Assembly: GCA_021808105.1 (NCBI GenBank)
Contig: JAKBCC010000001.1
Location: 32,753 to 96,752, forward strand
Origin: Planctomycetota bacterium
GTDB lineage: Bacteria > Planctomycetota > Phycisphaerae > WQYP01
Direction of reading: 5' to 3'
Length of the DNA: 64,000 nt
A model generated the notes under the pieces. It did no database searches. It was not told the DNA's origin and saw only the letters and a program-made list of their open reading frames with translations. The position numbers and the translations under genes were made by a program. This document shows, piece by piece, positions 24,306 through 51,782 of this stretch; position 1 is the first letter of the stretch; every line of letters begins with the position of its first letter.

Positions 24306-24314
24306 TGCTATAAT
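24306..24314 (+). promoter_or_regulatory. extended -10 element TGCTATAAT upstream of the GT2 gene
   Basis: Perfect TGnTATAAT at 24306-24314. Confidence 0.3.
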
Positions 24315-24430
24315 AGGTGGGGCTTGACGTGGAACACAGCAATCAGGTCGGCACCGTTTGGTTTCTTCCGAACAGTGCGGCACTGCGATTGCTCGCATAG
24401 GCGACGGTAGTCGGTGGTTGTCAGGCGTGT

Positions 24431-25480
24431 TTGCGGGAGTATTTCGTGGGACCGCGTATATCGGTTTGTATCCCGACGCATAACCGTTCGGGTTTACTGC
24501 AGAAGACGCTGAAGAGTCTGGCTGCGGTGGAACCGTGCCCTGATATAACTTGGGAAATCATTGTCGTCGCGAATTGCTGCACAGATGATACGCTGCACGT
24601 CGTCGATGCACTCAAAGAGCACGTACCTGTTAAGTTGTTGATAATCGAAGAAGCGGACCTTGGTGTGGTGGCAGCGCGAAACCGGGCGTTGCGACATGCA
24701 CGCGGCGAGATCATCGCCTTTTTGGATGATGATGTGCTCGTTCGTCCGCTGTGGTTGTGTGAACTTGTAAAAGCTTTTGACTCCCAACCTGATATGCTTG
24801 TGGGCCGGGTTTATCTGGACTGGCATACATTGTCCCGTCCTACTTGGTTTGATGCCGGTATGGGCCAGTATCTCGCGCAGGTTGATCTCGGTGATGTCCC
24901 CATGCTTTTGCAGAATCCATTGGGGGCGGGGGCTAATCTGGCGATTACCCGGGACATGCTGCAACGTATTGGAGGATTCTGCTGTCCGTTGGAGCGCACG
25001 GGTAAACGCACGGCCGGGGAAGATACTGACTTGATAGCTCGAGCGATGCGCGCCAAGGGGCGTGTGCTGTATGCCCCAACCGTGACGGTGGATCACTATG
25101 TAGCGGCGGCAAGATTGACAGTCCGATATCTGAGAGGGGTCGCGTTTGATGTGGGCATGGCGGAGTACCTGATCGCGCCGAGTATCAGCGCAGGTGAACT
25201 GGCGGCAAATCTGGGCAAGAAAATTCCGCGTTTGCTTCAACGATCGGTCCGCTGGCTGCTGGTAGTGCCATTTAATCAGCGGGCGGCGGCTTGTTTGCGC
25301 GTCAGCTTGGCAAAAACACGCGGAAATATTGGGGGAATCATGCTTTGTGCCTGGCGTAGTATGTTGGGGCGCTCGGTGAGGCCGCCCGTTTTCGGAGACT
25401 TGCCCGAGTTGTCGGCCACCATTGCTTCCGGAAATTCAGCGGCTCCGGCGGACCAATTAATGGCCGGTACGCATGGTTAA
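24431..25480 (+). CDS. family 2 glycosyltransferase
   Basis: SVCIPTHNRSG..L..L.S....P......EIIVV.N...D.T and FLDDDVL (DXD). Confidence 0.85.
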   Translation: MREYFVGPRISVCIPTHNRSGLLQKTLKSLAAVEPCPDITWEIIVVANCCTDDTLHVVDALKEHVPVKLLIIEEADLGVVAARNRALRHARGEIIAFLDDDVLVRPLWLCELVKAFDSQPDMLVGRVYLDWHTLSRPTWFDAGMGQYLAQVDLGDVPMLLQNPLGAGANLAITRDMLQRIGGFCCPLERTGKRTAGEDTDLIARAMRAKGRVLYAPTVTVDHYVAAARLTVRYLRGVAFDVGMAEYLIAPSISAGELAANLGKKIPRLLQRSVRWLLVVPFNQRAAACLRVSLAKTRGNIGGIMLCAWRSMLGRSVRPPVFGDLPELSATIASGNSAAPADQLMAGTHG

Positions 25481-25583
25481 TTCGGACGCGGCCGCTTGAG
25501 AATTACCAATGGTTCCGGGAAAATGAGGTTCTGCTCGATACAGCGGCCAACGCCGCACGGTCAGAAATGCCTGGAATTCTTTT

Positions 25584-48954: not shown

Positions 48955-49061
48955 CCTTGAATTTTAATGACATAATCATTAAAAATCAAGTAAATAACGA
49001 TTCCTGTTCGACTTGTTTTTTGCTGATACGTATTTTTATGCTTAACTGAATTTTACCCCCA

Positions 49062-51281
49062 TCACGCCCGCGGGCAGCGGCGACGGGGAGGAATTGCGCC
49101 CGTGGCGCACTGGGCGTCGGCGACGGTTTGCACAACTATCGGCGGCTCGCCGGCCCGGCCACGAAACCAGCGGTTTAATAGGCGAATGTTGCGCCAGCGG
49201 CTGGCCGCTCTTTTTGCCGCCACGCCGGTATACAGGCGTTGATTTTCCAGCATCACCGGGATCAAATCCCGCAGTTCGGGATGTATTGCATTGAGGTAGG
49301 GCTGAATACTGCAGGCGCGGTTGGCGTTCCAGTTTTGATCCGTGCTGCGTGAAACGCTGGTTTTGCTGATGCGGTAAAACAGCAGCGATTGGGGAATCAG
49401 TTCCAGCTTATGCCCGGCCAGAACCGCCCGCGCAAAAAATTCCCAGTCTTCCTGATACCCGCTGAAGCGCTCTGCAAAACCGCCCAGCGATTCAAACATA
49501 CTTCTCTTCATCAGGCAGTGCACATCGCCAAAGACGTTGATAAATGCCCCAGCCGCAGCCGCCGGTCCCAAGGGCACCCACATGGGAAAAGGTACGCTGG
49601 GAGCAGGCGGGGACTGGCCTTCAAAAAGTGTCATTGTGGAAGTTACCACGTCGGCATGGGTTCTTTGCGCCACTTGCATGGCGCAGGCCAGCCAGTGCGG
49701 TGTTGCAATATTATCATCATCCATAAAGGCCAGATAATCGCCGCGGGCCACTCGGGCGGCGTTATTTCGCGCCCGCCACATGTATTGATTGTCCTGCCGG
49801 ATAATGCGCCACCCGCGCGAGGCAAATTCCTTTTCCAATGTTTTTAAAAGTGCCTGGGCCTCCGGTGATGGGCTGCCGTCATCAATCAGGATAACTTCAT
49901 AATTCCGGTAGCTTTGCGATTTAAGAGAATCCACAGCCTGCCGCAGTGTTTCCGGGCGATTGTAATGCACCAGACATACGCTGATCATGGGCATTGCGGC
50001 ATCGGCGGGAGGCGTATCGTCTGCGCCAAGCGGAATCACCGCGTTCCCGCTTGGTGGTGGTTTTGCACATACGAGGGCCTTGATCAGGAGTTGCCACTGT
50101 TCTGCGGTATTGGATGCCTCCAGGTGATAGGCCAATGGACTAATGCCATTTTGAATTGCGGATTGGATCTTCTGCGATAATGCCGGTGCGGTGGGGGTGA
50201 AGCAGAGTTTCTCACACACTTCATTTGTAACAAAATCCCGAATACCGCAGTGCTCCGGAATCAAAACCGGAATGTTGTCCGCCACACAATTTATAAGTAA
50301 TTGCGGTAGGCTTCCGGATCCTGGAGCAAAAATGGCAATGCGACCGGCACCGCGCAGATAGGCCAATTGCCGCTCCAGGTCCGCCTCCGCCAGAATGCTG
50401 AATCTACAGTCTGATCGGCGCAGTGTCTTGCGAACATACCAGTCGCCGGCCAGTTGCCTGACTTCCCCGATTGCACCGATAAAGGTGATCTTTAATTTTT
50501 TACAAAGCGGGGCGGGCAGCATTTTGATGGCATGGCAAAATAATTCCACGCCCTCGGCGGAATCCATTGCACCGGCAAAAACCAGCTCTGCCAGCGGTTG
50601 GGCGGCAGGGCCGGCCGGCAGGGGGGGCAGTGTTGCCTTTGCATCTTCAGATGGGCTGTATGAGATGGCCCGGGGCGTCGGCAATGGCGGAAGCACGGAA
50701 GTGTTGGCCGGCAAGATCCATCCATCGCTTTTAAGCCAGTCGCGTAATCCGGAGGTGCACACCACGGCCGCATCAGCCCGACGCACCATGTCGCGTTCCA
50801 TAAACATGACTTCAAGGGTCTCAACACTTGTGGGCATGGATTGCCGGGCGTGGTAGCGCCATTGCGTGGGAGCGGTTAAATACGTGACAAATTGTGTTTT
50901 TTCAAAGGCGATTCCCTGCTGCCGCGCAAGAACTGCGTAATAGGCTATGCCCTGCCAGGCGGGTGAAATCACGCAGTCATACGCAGTGGGGTGAAATTTA
51001 AGCCAGCGGAAAAATTCATAGCTGCGTCTGCGAAACCAGCCCCCGATAACCTGCGTTTCTGTAAGCCAGTCAAGCGTTATGACGTGCACGCCGGGCGGCG
51101 TGACCACTCCGGTGCGATGACCATGATCTGATTTTAAGGCCCCATCCCCGGAGATACACAAGGTAACGTCATGGCCGCCCGCAGCTAATACGCTGGCGGC
51201 ATTGATGCACGCCTGTGGGGCGTCATCGGAGTTGGCTCCCGCCGACACTGCGGGTATTGCGATGCAAATTTTTAAGTTCAT
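49062..51281 (-). CDS. two-domain glycosyltransferase (GT4-like N-terminal, GT2 C-terminal)
   Basis: Same architecture as 25584-27887. The GT2 region starts at ISVCLVHYNRPE with DD motifs. Confidence 0.75.
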   Translation of the reverse strand: MNLKICIAIPAVSAGANSDDAPQACINAASVLAAGGHDVTLCISGDGALKSDHGHRTGVVTPPGVHVITLDWLTETQVIGGWFRRRSYEFFRWLKFHPTAYDCVISPAWQGIAYYAVLARQQGIAFEKTQFVTYLTAPTQWRYHARQSMPTSVETLEVMFMERDMVRRADAAVVCTSGLRDWLKSDGWILPANTSVLPPLPTPRAISYSPSEDAKATLPPLPAGPAAQPLAELVFAGAMDSAEGVELFCHAIKMLPAPLCKKLKITFIGAIGEVRQLAGDWYVRKTLRRSDCRFSILAEADLERQLAYLRGAGRIAIFAPGSGSLPQLLINCVADNIPVLIPEHCGIRDFVTNEVCEKLCFTPTAPALSQKIQSAIQNGISPLAYHLEASNTAEQWQLLIKALVCAKPPPSGNAVIPLGADDTPPADAAMPMISVCLVHYNRPETLRQAVDSLKSQSYRNYEVILIDDGSPSPEAQALLKTLEKEFASRGWRIIRQDNQYMWRARNNAARVARGDYLAFMDDDNIATPHWLACAMQVAQRTHADVVTSTMTLFEGQSPPAPSVPFPMWVPLGPAAAAGAFINVFGDVHCLMKRSMFESLGGFAERFSGYQEDWEFFARAVLAGHKLELIPQSLLFYRISKTSVSRSTDQNWNANRACSIQPYLNAIHPELRDLIPVMLENQRLYTGVAAKRAASRWRNIRLLNRWFRGRAGEPPIVVQTVADAQCATGAIPPRRRCPRA

Positions 51282-51708
51282 TATCCTGTCCCCGTTTTCA
51301 GGAAATCTCTTCTCCCCCCGATACTATACCGCCCGCATGACGGTTAGGGTAACAGCGCAGCAATCCACACCGCATGTTAGCGGGCGTGGCAATATTTCCG
51401 GGCCACGCGCCGTGCGGGAAAACTTCACAAAGCCGCCGGCTCTGCCGGTGGTGGAACACCGGATAAAAGAATCTCTGGCGGGATCTTGGCGCGCCGGTAA
51501 ATAATGGTGTGCTTTCCGCCTGATTTGGCGTTAATGCGACCATGCCCGGAAAAATTGCAACCCCCATGTTAGCCGGCACAGTCATGTGCCGATGGAACGT
51601 GCCCGCTGTCACAGTAAGAAATAAGTGTTGATTGGCGAATCCTTGCTTTTCAGCGATAGTTGAAGATAATGTTAAATTCGTCAATGGAGCCGGGAAGCAC
51701 ATTGACAT

Positions 51709-51782
51709 GCGCTCGTAGCTCAATTGGATAGAGCGTCGGTCTACGGAACCGAAGGTTGCAGGTTCGACTCCTGCCGGGCGCA
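51709..51782 (+). tRNA. tRNA-Arg (anticodon ACG)
   Basis: Hand-folded cloverleaf: 7 bp acceptor stem (one G-U), 4 bp D stem, 5 bp anticodon stem with loop CTACGGA, T-loop TTCGACT, discriminator A. CCA is not encoded. Confidence 0.85.

Follow-up and report, generated by a model that had tools for sequence, protein, structure and literature searches.

The segment 23952-52229 of the window, by which we mean the whole 64,000-nt stretch of DNA analysed, is probably a chromosomal surface-glycan biosynthesis locus native to this group of Phycisphaerae and situated in a rearrangement hot spot, rather than a recently imported mobile island. As a locus type, it is best read as ABC-transporter-dependent, with a terminator/coiled-coil-ruler/polymerase organization. 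In each species examined the locus has different outer neighbours; the tRNA-Arg(ACG) next to it moves along, and the interior of the locus is reshuffled through inversion, deletion and replacement. The first-pass annotation had described a horizontally acquired island at a tRNA; of that description we retain a variable, actively remodelled locus, but not its foreign, tRNA-integrated character.

Gene Content of the Locus

The gene inventory drawn up earlier for the 27-kb region was right and is supported by Pfam and PADLOC, the Pfam scan covering the window from ~14 kb to ~61 kb. The features are listed below.

24059..24217, + strand, relic of the 3′ end of a 600-aa gene (its final ~30 codons and the next ~70 nt)
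24431..25480, + strand, GT2 glycosyltransferase, 349 aa (PF00535, 2.7e-26)
25584..27887, + strand, GT4 with a diverged GT2-like domain, 767 aa (Pfam GT4 families)
27953..28186, + strand, RHH antitoxin (PF01402, 4.7e-6)
to 28277, + strand, putative PIN stump of about 26-28 codons, after RHH
28399..30588, + strand, ABC exporter, fused TMD-NBD, MsbA/PglK type (PF00664, 1.5e-33; PF00005, 1.1e-32)
30689..35182, + strand, Giant1 (Pfam: MT-GT2-GT2-GT4)
35412..36170, + strand, methyltransferase pseudogene with two frameshifts (three successive ORFs)
36190..36330, + strand, PIN-like gene remnant (45 N-terminal codons; full protein 161 aa)
36264..36611, + strand, partner gene of the PIN-like remnant, 91-93 aa
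36839..38125, + strand, AAA_14/DUF4143 ATPase a, PADLOC candidate PDC-S01 (PF13635, 3.2e-41; PDLC04790, 1.8e-156)
38168..38515, - strand, HepT toxin (PF01934, 4.3e-17)
38499..38807, - strand, MntA nucleotidyltransferase antitoxin (PF18765, 8e-12; PDC-S09, 7.1e-23)
38991..43790, - strand, Giant2 (Pfam: sulfotransferase-WbsX-GT4-GT2)
44118..46547, + strand, PEP-CTERM-like secreted protein, Gly/Ser/Ala/Thr-rich (PF07589)
46679..47422, + strand, zinc-ribbon SAM methyltransferase (within repeat-bracketed 46543..47586)
47683..48954, - strand, AAA_14/DUF4143 ATPase b, PDC-S01 (Pfam, PADLOC)
49062..51281, - strand, GT4-GT2, 739 aa (Pfam; orthologues 81, 71, 68 and 61%)
51708..51783, + strand, tRNA-Arg(ACG) (ARAGORN; Rfam, 69.4 bits)
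51784..51910, + strand, copy of a ~130-nt repeat family (alignment; nhmmer, 1.9e-32)

Two giant multi-domain synthases of ~1,500-1,600 aa each are encoded. Giant1, whose probable start is the ATG at 30689, is composed in order of an N-terminal SAM methyltransferase, a coiled coil containing tandem repeats of 49 aa (nt 31512-31805), two basic motifs and GT2, GT2 and GT4 domains, and Giant2 of an N-terminal sulfotransferase, a coiled coil, two basic motifs, a WbsX (GH99-like) domain, GT4 and GT2. The AT-richer patches reported within Giant1 do exist (46.2% and 45.3% GC, 2nd-3rd percentile of 200-nt windows) and fall between its detected domains. In the 767-aa protein only the GT4 half was detected by Pfam; its residues 24-676 align with the 739-aa GT4-GT2 protein at 25% identity (E 1.5e-56), and its C-terminus carries the basic motif RRKTRRIRYMF. 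The PEP-CTERM motif is C-terminal and anchor-like and scores 19.4 bits, just below the Pfam cut-off of 20.7, which the shorter protein of L033 passes at 24.2 bits. A PEP-CTERM-type protein accompanies the cluster in every relative examined (orthologues 78-80%, with two copies in L025). A 67-nt direct repeat stands on either side of the zinc-ribbon methyltransferase gene (46543-46609 and 47520-47586, 90% identical), and in L025 the second PEP-CTERM gene occupies the place of the second repeat. The genes scanned in or beside the cluster yielded neither an exosortase (EpsH) nor an initiating phosphoglycosyltransferase.

Toxin-antitoxin and defence-candidate genes are interspersed. The RHH-PIN remnant (27953..28277) sits between the GT4 and ABC genes, and RHH is absent from the equivalent gap (122 nt) in L033. 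The supposed PIN N-terminal fragment is indeed the N-terminal remnant of a gene intact elsewhere: a ~330-nt internal deletion separates it from the 161-aa protein of L114 and L116, which matches PIN weakly (E 0.013), and the remnant and its partner match the intact L114/L116 pair at 70-72% and 60-68% (tblastn). The HepT and MntA genes overlap, and the two DUF4143 ATPases are diverged, as had been stated (33% identity between a and b). The frameshifted methyltransferase is likewise real, its three ORF pieces matching a single intact 228-aa gene in L025; with 29% identity to the intact methyltransferase, it is a paralogue and not a recent copy. The selfish modules of toxin-antitoxin type and the defence candidates (RHH-PIN, the PIN-like pair, HepT/MntA and PDC-S01) have accreted in intergenic gaps. 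DUF4143/toxin-antitoxin genes or fragments sit at many junctions, which suggests a role as recombination substrates or markers.

Composition and Mobility Genes

GC, codon-usage and tetranucleotide profiles were flat and indistinguishable from those of the flanks. The GC content of the region is 54.5%, compared with flank values of 55.0% and 55.9%, and the synonymous-codon fractions of cluster and flanks correlate at r = 0.974. The cluster genes are not more deviant, since their codon-usage distance per gene is 0.148 compared with 0.173 for flank genes, and the tetranucleotide distance between cluster and flank gave p = 0.25. As the first-pass annotation had noted, no integrase or transposase is present in the region; all intergenic gaps are ≤ ~480 nt, so such a gene cannot fit. 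No integrase was found either in the window or in eight distinct relative loci with cluster genes, and a direct-repeat search for the tRNA-Arg 3′ end returned no repeat. With the cluster also lying 5′ of the tRNA, this tRNA absent beside rplI in the relative loci scanned but linked to the GT4-GT2 gene in L030 and L116, and orthologues present in sister species, these results argue against a foreign island integrated at tRNA-Arg.

Borders, Flanks and tRNA-Arg(ACG)

Homology with all relatives ends exactly at the sodA stop codon (23951) on the left and at the rplI stop codon (52230) on the right. On the left, seven relatives are collinear through sodA and carry no cluster gene in the 2-10 kb beyond, and in an eighth, more distant one (L010) the match ends at the gene before sodA. 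On the right, collinearity extends to rplI in eight loci, beyond which comes either PEMT plus a microcompartment locus or EF-G. In the MAG JA4.bin8, sodA, rplI and the cluster are located on three separate contigs (L008, L014 and L030). The left breakpoint is marked by the relic at 24059..24217, whose source gene follows sodA in L005 (blastn 80% over 160 nt; tblastn 63% over 30 aa). The relatives, all of them fragmentary MAG or metagenome contigs, yielded no empty site, and an unsampled relative might share the sodA-cluster-rplI order.

The tRNA-Arg(ACG) belongs to the non-syntenic segment and not to the conserved flank, and its 3′ end faces away from the cluster. Beside rplI it was absent from all eight relative loci scanned. 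In L030 and L116 it lies 0.4-0.8 kb from the orthologue of the 739-aa GT4-GT2 gene, which is thus linked to this tRNA across three lineages, and the outer flank of the unit is MnmE in L030 and MutY, dcd and RNR in L116. Both other lineages with a locatable tRNA-Arg(ACG) (n = 2) therefore carry the locus beside it. A flat GC and codon-usage profile together with the same locus at this tRNA in all relatives had been named in advance as evidence against an acquired island; given the flat profiles and the locus at this tRNA in L030 and L116, this is largely what was observed, completely for composition and substantially for position.

Variation among Relatives

The cluster proteins have orthologues of about 66-93% amino-acid identity in MAGs of sister species, a range overlapping that of the flank proteins (73-98%). 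In L033, the genes for GT2 (69%), GT4 (60%) and the ABC exporter (85.5%) are collinear with the window, the GT2 orthologue heading the same GT2-GT4-ABC module. Orthologues in L026 include the ABC exporter (85%), RHH (83%), ATPase a (93%) and MntA (90%), and those in L025 include Giant1 (84%), the PEP-CTERM protein (79%), the zinc-ribbon methyltransferase (88.5%) and ATPase b (88%). Five full-length orthologues of Giant2 were obtained from related MAGs (83, 80, 79, 69 and 66%), with identity falling to ~40% in other phyla. The proposed active remodelling was borne out, since inversions, deletions, replaced genes and inserted toxin-antitoxin modules make the interior vary across species: in L025 Giant1 has the opposite orientation with respect to Giant2, a different synthase (1147 or 1207 aa) stands in place of Giant1 in L026 and L033, fragments of DUF4143 3′ ends lie at junctions in L025 and L026, and the methyltransferase and PIN-like pseudogenes of the window have intact counterparts in relatives. 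Cluster and flanks do not run parallel in nucleotide identity (79-86% for the cluster against 76-80% for the flank in SKS5.bin63, and 77-80% against 85-90% in JA4.bin8), so cluster DNA might have been exchanged between clade members.

Alternative Explanations

A degenerate integrative island appears unlikely; it would have entered site-specifically at tRNA-Arg(ACG) in an ancestor, after which integrase and att repeats disappeared and its composition became that of the host. Such an origin would fit the tRNA bordering the cluster in three lineages, the interspersed toxin-antitoxin and defence-candidate genes, the incongruent nucleotide identities and the arrangement in JA4.bin8 (L030), where the cluster lies 3′ of the tRNA, as in a classical island, and the other side harbors a weak match to an IS200-like Y1 transposase and an AbiEii gene. 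It is opposed by the lack of an integrase in the window and the eight relative loci with cluster genes, by the missing tRNA 3′-end repeat, by the composition, by the 5′ position of the cluster in both the window and L116, and by the presence of the cluster throughout the clade. We consider it about equally improbable that the cluster and tRNA form an integrase-free cassette that changes its chromosomal site, with the ~130-nt repeat as the target of homologous recombination and the DUF4143 ATPase-nuclease genes possibly assisting. This repeat family follows several tRNA genes in the clade (tRNA-Arg(ACG) and tRNA-Gln, and tRNA-Arg(TCT) in relatives), with three tandem copies in L030. The copy at 51784..51910 adjoins the right breakpoint, which lies between the repeat end (51910) and rplI (52230), the same repeat adjoins the sodA-side breakpoint in L005 and L008, and one tRNA-cluster unit has three different outer flanks. 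Nevertheless, neither a repeat copy nor a hybrid junction was detected at the left border (nhmmer, blastn-short), simple single-inversion models fail to give the observed order, in L116 tRNA and cluster are linked although no repeat is detectable, and the association rests on a handful of loci.

That the sodA-cluster-rplI join is an assembly or binning chimera seems very improbable. Several same-species metagenome contigs terminate within the cluster or at its border (28576, 29069, ~38835 and 51617-51676), and 29070-38834 is covered by the window alone; however, the left junction recurs in two independent metagenome assemblies (L001 and L002) and the right junction in two others (L021 and L113), all at 99.7-100% identity, and the relative L026 shows the order ABC ... 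DUF4143a-MntA-Giant2.

Proposed Glycan Pathway and Comparison with Known Systems

Judging from domain homology, the stand-alone glycosyltransferases and the two giant enzymes would build a glycan at the cytoplasmic face. Two or three polymerising GT modules would be combined in each giant enzyme with a coiled-coil "ruler" and a chain-terminating domain, presumably the methyltransferase in Giant1 and the sulfotransferase in Giant2. The fused ABC transporter may export the product, with the PEP-CTERM protein as its likely partner or carrier.

A terminator/coiled-coil-ruler/polymerase arrangement is found in ABC-dependent O-polysaccharide systems such as E. coli O9a WbdD-WbdA and K. pneumoniae O12 WbbB and O7 ORF6 (PMC11231755, PMC3482155). 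Giant1 resembles O7 ORF6 in its N-terminal methyltransferase, central coiled coil and C-terminal GT modules (PMC11231755), and Giant2 shares the logic with a different N-terminal domain, a putative sulfotransferase terminator, whereas the terminators named in PMC11231755 include none. As in those loci, the ABC exporter gene is adjacent and the cluster contains no Wzx or Wzy. The basic motif after the coiled coils of the giants and at the C-terminus of the 767-aa protein occupies the position of the WbdD membrane helix/polymerase docking site. In contrast, the exporter is a fused MsbA/PglK-type half-transporter instead of Wzm/Wzt, and two such proteins occur per locus, each with two or three GT modules. 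The likeness to the enterobacterial proteins lies at the level of domain architecture.

Haft et al. reportedly described PEP-CTERM/exosortase-associated exopolysaccharide loci in 2006; the present locus is similar in having a PEP-CTERM-type protein inside a glycosyltransferase-rich locus in every relative examined, but differs in that the genes scanned in and beside it include no exosortase.

PDC-S01 (AAA_14/DUF4143, ATPase plus PD-(D/E)xK) and PDC-S09 (MntA-like) are candidate defence genes (PMC12988326), and their HMM matches here are strong (1.8e-156, 2.1e-94 and 7.1e-23). Together with the HepT/MntA type VII toxin-antitoxin, they form one- or two-gene modules dispersed in a variable region, though embedded here in a biosynthetic locus and not in a defence island.

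The locus shares with tRNA-integrated genomic or pathogenicity islands and ICEs a tRNA border, toxin-antitoxin modules, gene remnants and variable presence at this site, and departs from them in lacking an integrase and a tRNA 3′-end direct repeat, in its native composition, in the 5′ placement of the cluster relative to the tRNA, seen in two lineages out of three, and in the tRNA missing from this site in relatives. Variable surface-glycan loci between conserved flanks are also known as flexible or replacement genomic islands, as in enterobacterial O-antigen loci and the glycotype islands of marine bacteria. The present locus resembles these in its conserved housekeeping flanks, homology that breaks off sharply at gene ends, content differing between close relatives, non-orthologous synthase replacement (L026 and L033) and the lack of an integrase; unlike them, it is not atypical in composition, and its flanks are not kept together in relatives, the locus changing chromosomal neighbours instead of being swapped in place. 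The 27-kb cluster is an ordinary kind of variable locus, common to sister species.

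Gene Content of the Glycan Cluster

The glycan genes between about 24 and 52 kb probably constitute a plastic surface-glycan locus with predicted terminator/ruler/polymerase enzymes, which is a known kind of locus. The first-pass annotation had read this block as a horizontally acquired and actively remodelled island ending at tRNA-Arg(ACG); the variable and remodelled character of the locus was upheld, whereas its reading as a foreign, tRNA-integrated island was not. Almost every item of the gene inventory proposed there was confirmed by HMM searches, as listed below.

Features of the cluster and its flanks in window coordinates
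Left flank: housekeeping genes for citrate synthase, PIG-L, two PilT/PilB-type ATPases, a 544-aa membrane protein and sodA
24431-25480: GT2 (GT2_349)
25584-27887: GT4_767, 767 aa, with a C-terminal half that is a diverged copy of the GT2 half of the 739-aa GT4-GT2
27953-28186: RHH antitoxin, then a very short possible PIN stump
28399-30588: fused ABC exporter
30689 (probable start)-35182: Giant1 synthase, with methyltransferase, coiled coil, GT2, GT2 and GT4
35412-36170: methyltransferase pseudogene
36190-36611: 45-codon PIN-like gene remnant and its partner gene
36839-38125: DUF4143 ATPase "a" (DUF4143a)
38168-38807, minus: HepT/MntA
38991-43790, minus: Giant2 synthase, with sulfotransferase, coiled coil, WbsX, GT4 and GT2
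44118-46547: PEP-CTERM-type protein rich in Gly/Ser/Ala/Thr
46679-47422: zinc-ribbon methyltransferase (MT)
47683-48954, minus: DUF4143 ATPase "b" (DUF4143b)
49062-51281, minus: GT4-GT2, 739 aa
51708-51783, plus: tRNA-Arg(ACG)
Right flank: housekeeping genes rplI, ssb, rpsF, pth, L25, prs and a GlmU-like gene

The relationship between GT4_767 and the 739-aa GT4-GT2 was recovered by protein alignment (25% identity, E 1.5e-56). The 26-codon stump after the RHH gene is too short and gave no profile match. The public contigs nearest to the window are Phycisphaerales and Planctomycetota MAGs and ENA metagenome contigs. The ribosomal operon of the right flank (52236-53959) reads rpsF-ssb-rplI with no rpsR (S18) in the 62-nt gap between ssb and rplI, and the same order without rpsR was seen in the relatives L013 and L017.

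Composition and Codon Usage

The GC content per 1-kb window ranged from 0.48 to 0.62 within the region against 0.51 to 0.60 outside, and the overall GC was 54.5% in the region, 55.0% in the left flank and 55.9% in the right flank. The synonymous-codon fractions of cluster and flank genes were correlated with r = 0.974, and the codon-usage distance per gene to the flank set was 0.148 for the cluster and 0.173 for the flank (Mann-Whitney p = 0.09); therefore, the cluster genes are no more deviant than the flank genes. The tetranucleotide distance of 4-kb windows revealed no difference between the region and the flanks (p = 0.25), the single outlier window covering the low-complexity PEP-CTERM gene. 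An atypical GC and codon-usage profile was not borne out, with only GC3 being slightly lower in the cluster (0.578 vs 0.612, p = 0.011). The AT-richer patches that had been pointed out by eye are real (46.2% and 45.3% GC); they lie only in the 2nd-3rd percentile of 200-nt windows, and both fall between the detected domains of Giant1.

Limits of the Variable Segment

The left junction is 99.7-100% identical in L001 and L002 and the right one in L021 and L113, all independent same-species assemblies; both junctions are thus reproduced independently, and the arrangement is therefore not a chimera. The left flank is collinear through sodA in seven species-level MAGs (protein identity 73-98%, nucleotide identity 76-86%), while in L010, an eighth and more distant relative, only PilB and the 544-aa protein match. 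In all seven MAGs the homology stops at 23951, the sodA stop codon, and no cluster genes were detected within the following 2-10 kb. The genes after sodA are a third type of DUF4143 gene in L003, L004 and L009, a 600-aa gene, tRNA-Arg(TCT) and sucB-sucA in L005, tRNA-Arg(TCT) and sucB-sucA without the 600-aa gene in L008, and a Tim44-like protein with an ECF sigma factor in L006 and L007. At 24059-24217 the window keeps a relic of the 600-aa gene seen in L005, comprising its final ~30 codons and 70 nt beyond them; an L005-like arrangement therefore came earlier on the left side.

On the right side, the relatives retain the genes from the GlmU-like gene up to and including rplI, and homology breaks off at ~52230, where rplI ends; in the more distant L017-L020 it is likewise lost near the rplI end. 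Beyond rplI, PEMT and a microcompartment locus were located in L013-L016 and EF-G in L017-L020, and none of the six of these loci scanned for tRNAs carries tRNA-Arg(ACG) there. From both homology limits and the lack of this tRNA at rplI in relatives, the variable segment therefore comprises 23952-52229, tRNA included. The main uncertainty is that every comparison with relatives rests on fragmentary MAG contigs.

Two side observations concern the same contigs. Same-species metagenome contigs from different samples (L002, L001, L113, L022 and L023) end within the cluster or at its border, at ~28576, 29069, ~38835 and 51617-51676, and structural variants living side by side in the population may account for these ends. 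Outside the cluster, 9207-9332 of the window holds the last 42 codons of the third-type DUF4143 gene (48-50% identity), which is intact right after sodA in L004 and L009 and partial at the contig end in L003; this remnant may be a further small spot of debris.

The Cluster in Related Genomes

Full-length Giant2 orthologues were found in related MAGs with 83, 80, 79, 69 and 66% identity, and the next matches, at ~40%, come from Pseudomonas, Gallionella, rhizobia and others. L025 (MAG SKS5.bin63, which is also the source of the sodA locus L006) harbors two PEP-CTERM copies, the MT (88.5%), Giant2 (80%), DUF4143b (88%), an intact antitoxin-PIN pair and an intact counterpart of the methyltransferase pseudogene of the window; its Giant1 (84%) shares a strand with Giant2 and is therefore inverted relative to the window. 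L026 contains Giant2, MntA (90%), a HepT remnant, RHH (83%), DUF4143a (93%) and a DUF4143b fragment, and the place of Giant1 is taken by a non-orthologous 1147-aa synthase, followed by the ABC gene (85%). A radical-SAM gene follows Giant2 in L027-L029. The more distant JGI contig L033, the single real relative in a metagenome scan with GT2_349 (the other 79 loci were generic GT2 matches of ≤40% and were left unused), encodes the GT2 (69%), the GT4 (60%), the ABC protein (85.5%), a 1207-aa MT-GT synthase and a PEP-CTERM protein; RHH is missing from its GT4-ABC gap, and its left flank is different again.

The identities of the cluster orthologues (60-93%) overlap those of the flank proteins (73-98%), which argues for descent within the clade. 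At the nucleotide level, the cluster and flank identities were 79-86% and 76-80% for SKS5.bin63, and 77-80% and 85-90% for JA4.bin8, and this slight incongruence of the sequences hints at some exchange of the cluster between clade members.

Orthologues of the 739-aa GT4-GT2 adjoin tRNA-Arg(ACG) in two other lineages, L030 and L116. L030 belongs to JA4.bin8, whose sodA and rplI lie on the separate contigs L008 and L014, and shows the order MnmE, tRNA-Arg(ACG), three tandem flank repeats, GT4-GT2 (71%), DUF302, PEP-CTERM and MT. L116 has the orientation of the window, with 96% identity over the tRNA and 75 nt upstream, and its outer flank consists of MutY, dcd and ribonucleotide reductase. In L114, which carries a GT4-GT2 of 61% identity, no tRNA was found within 10 kb. 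The tRNA-cluster unit of the window, L030 and L116 therefore has three different outer neighbours. Since the cluster stands at this tRNA in L030 and L116 too, the island claim is contradicted in substance; the variation concerns the chromosomal neighbourhood and not the presence of the cluster at tRNA-Arg(ACG).

Compared with the window, a ~270-nt tRNA block is flipped in L030; the best inverted repeats around it are a 17-nt pair of 82% identity, which is not convincing. Beyond the tRNA of L030, at 5298-7074 and next to mnmE, a weak match to an IS200-like Y1 transposase and an AbiEii toxin gene were observed; no other genes of mobile-element type were seen around the cluster in relatives.

The tRNA Border and the Flanking Repeat

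If the cluster had entered at the tRNA, an integrase, a repeat of the tRNA 3' end and an empty site in relatives might be looked for. No tyrosine or serine integrase was detected at 24-52 kb, where all genes are assigned, or on the cluster contigs of relatives, and the first-pass statement that no integrase or transposase is visible holds, as all remaining gaps are under ~480 nt and no such gene fits. The last 22 nt of the tRNA match only themselves in the window with up to 3 mismatches allowed, and the best blastn-short match of the tRNA and its flanks to 23.9-25.6 kb is 10 nt long (E 0.35); no att-like direct repeats of either the 3' end or the flanks of the tRNA were thus found near 24 kb. 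Encoded on the plus strand, the tRNA has its 3' end towards rplI and the cluster behind it, on the 5' side, which is the opposite of the geometry of tRNA 3'-end integration. In L116 the cluster is on this 5' side as well, and in L030 it is on the opposite side. Among the fragmentary contigs of relatives, none has sodA adjoining tRNA-Arg(ACG) or rplI; a superoxide dismutase gene 2.8 kb from rplI in L017-L020 was rejected as an empty site, being a 26%-identical paralogue with other neighbours.

A repeat family of ~130 nt was observed immediately 3' of the tRNA genes Arg-ACG, Gln-TTG and Arg-TCT, at the following positions.

Copies of the ~130-nt repeat
Window: 51784-51910, plus
Window: 59284-59416, minus
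Window: 59122-59229, minus
L030: 9198-9624
L005: 14995-15086
L008: 13161-13275

The repeat opens with a terminator-like hairpin, occurs in up to three tandem copies and adjoins synteny breakpoints. A fold of 24 pairs was predicted by RNAalifold, with compensatory changes at 6 of these, and no Rfam family matched at the gathering threshold. The 3' flank of the tRNA-Arg(TCT) located by sodA in L005 and L008 is ~85% identical to that of the tRNA-Arg(ACG) of the window. Remoulding of the tRNA anticodon was rejected as an explanation, as the shared flank is the repeat family itself, which also follows tRNA-Gln and is tandem in L030. Single-inversion models from L005/L008 (sodA, tRNA-Arg(TCT), sucBA) or from L030 to the window were rejected too, since none gives the observed order.

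It seems quite improbable that the glycan cluster and tRNA-Arg(ACG) form an integrase-free relocating cassette moved by recombination at the structured ~130-nt repeat. Under such a mechanism, the whole unit would gain new neighbours, rplI in the window, and MnmE and MutY in other lineages; the DUF4143 ATPase/PD-(D/E)xK genes embedded in it may help by making double-strand breaks, and the repeat and the DUF4143 genes would likewise shuffle the cluster interior. A secondary part of this reading is that Giant2 would cap a glycan with sulfate as a chain-terminating signal.

Remodelling and Toxin-Antitoxin Genes

Active remodelling of the locus is well supported by the inversion, the synthase replacement, the fragments and the pseudogenes seen against relatives. 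DUF4143a and DUF4143b share 33% identity, each has its own orthologue in relatives, and they are old paralogues; 3'-terminal fragments of both types lie at junctions in L025 and L026. Both match the HMM PDLC04790 of the PADLOC defence candidate PDC-S01 (1.8e-156 and 2.1e-94) over ~410 of 422 profile positions, and MntA matches PDC-S09. PDC-S01, an ATPase fused to a PD-(D/E)xK domain, is an abundant candidate whose defence activity is experimentally unvalidated (PMC12988326). Nothing useful was found in the DUF4143/AAA_14 literature.

The HepT/MntA pair (HepT, PF01934, 4.3e-17; MntA, PF18765, 8e-12) lies on the minus strand with a 17-nt gene overlap. The PIN-like remnant (36190-36330) corresponds to the N-terminal part of a 161-aa protein with a weak PIN match (E 0.013), which L114 and L116 encode in full, ~330 nt having been lost from inside the gene in the window. 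The MT gene is flanked by 67-nt direct repeats (46543-46609 and 47520-47586, 90% identical), each with the hairpin CACCGGAT...ATCCGGTG. Their position coincides with that of a second PEP-CTERM gene beyond the MT in L025, and a PEP-CTERM paralogue since deleted may have left the second repeat as its 3' flank.

Giant Synthases and Proposed Glycan Assembly

In Giant1 the methyltransferase occupies residues 118-244, heptad-rich 49-aa repeats ~360-560 and the glycosyltransferases the part from 690, while Giant2 carries the sulfotransferase at 30-260, the coiled coil at ~300-450 and WbsX from 567. A putative terminator domain is thus separated from the GT modules in both by a coiled coil, as judged from sequence. 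In WbdD/WbbB-type proteins a coiled-coil ruler bears the terminating enzyme at its far end and the polymerising GT modules at the other, and such terminator/ruler/polymerase proteins are a hallmark of ABC-transporter-dependent glycan assembly (PMC11231755, PMC3482155). Both giants share this WbdD/WbbB logic, and the layout of Giant1 is that of ORF6 of K. pneumoniae O7.

The exporter of the cluster combines ABC_membrane and ABC_tran in a fused MsbA/PglK type, whereas the prototypes use a Wzm/Wzt pair. No Wzx flippase or Wzy polymerase was detected at 24-52 kb; a gene of the conserved right flank (61478-62992) has an L013 orthologue with a precomputed Polysacc_synt (Wzx-like) match. No cluster protein contains a WecA- or WbaP-type domain of an initiating polyprenyl-phosphate glycosyl-phosphate transferase, and this enzyme may be encoded elsewhere, as in many ABC-dependent systems. 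The PEP-CTERM protein scores 19.4 bits with PF07589 (E 0.0011), below the cut-off of 20.7, while its positional counterpart in L033 passes it with 24.2 bits. No exosortase (EpsH) was found among the scanned genes of the 64-kb window.

The coiled coil of Giant1 contains a 147-nt (49-aa) tandem repeat (31512-31805), and the first basic motif stands 14 residues, or two heptads, further from the start codon than it does in the orthologue of L025; this difference in the predicted ruler suggests chain-length variation. The basic motif, R-[KR]-x-T-[RK]-x-[ILV]-R-[YH]-x-x-[MK], occurs in five copies in three cluster glycosyltransferases, two after the coiled coil of each giant and one at the C-terminus of GT4_767.

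Copies of the basic motif (residues)
GT4_767: ~749-770
Giant1 (ORF from 30422): 559-580 and 605-626
Giant2: 452-473 and 497-518

At this place WbdD carries its membrane helix and the docking site for the polymerase, and the motif may represent a membrane helix or a site at which one complex docks. The giants would control the length of one or two lipid-linked glycans, methyl- and/or sulfate-capped; the adjacent ABC protein would be their exporter, and they would be linked in function to the PEP-CTERM protein. No characterised example of a sulfotransferase chain terminator was found in the literature.

Implications

The result serves mainly as a caution: a tRNA border, toxin-antitoxin debris and pseudogenes alone do not mark a horizontally acquired island. 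Here they accompany native composition, a clade-wide cluster and a tRNA that is part of the moving unit. If the tRNA-flank repeat or the DUF4143 genes do drive the rearrangements, they would represent a new route of island mobility. The locus provides a tidy example of surface-glycan locus diversification in Planctomycetota, a phylum in which little is known of the envelope glycans, and supplies candidate terminator/ruler/polymerase enzymes for studies of ABC-dependent glycan length control, one of which, Giant2, is sulfotransferase-headed and has relatives in Pseudomonas and rhizobia.
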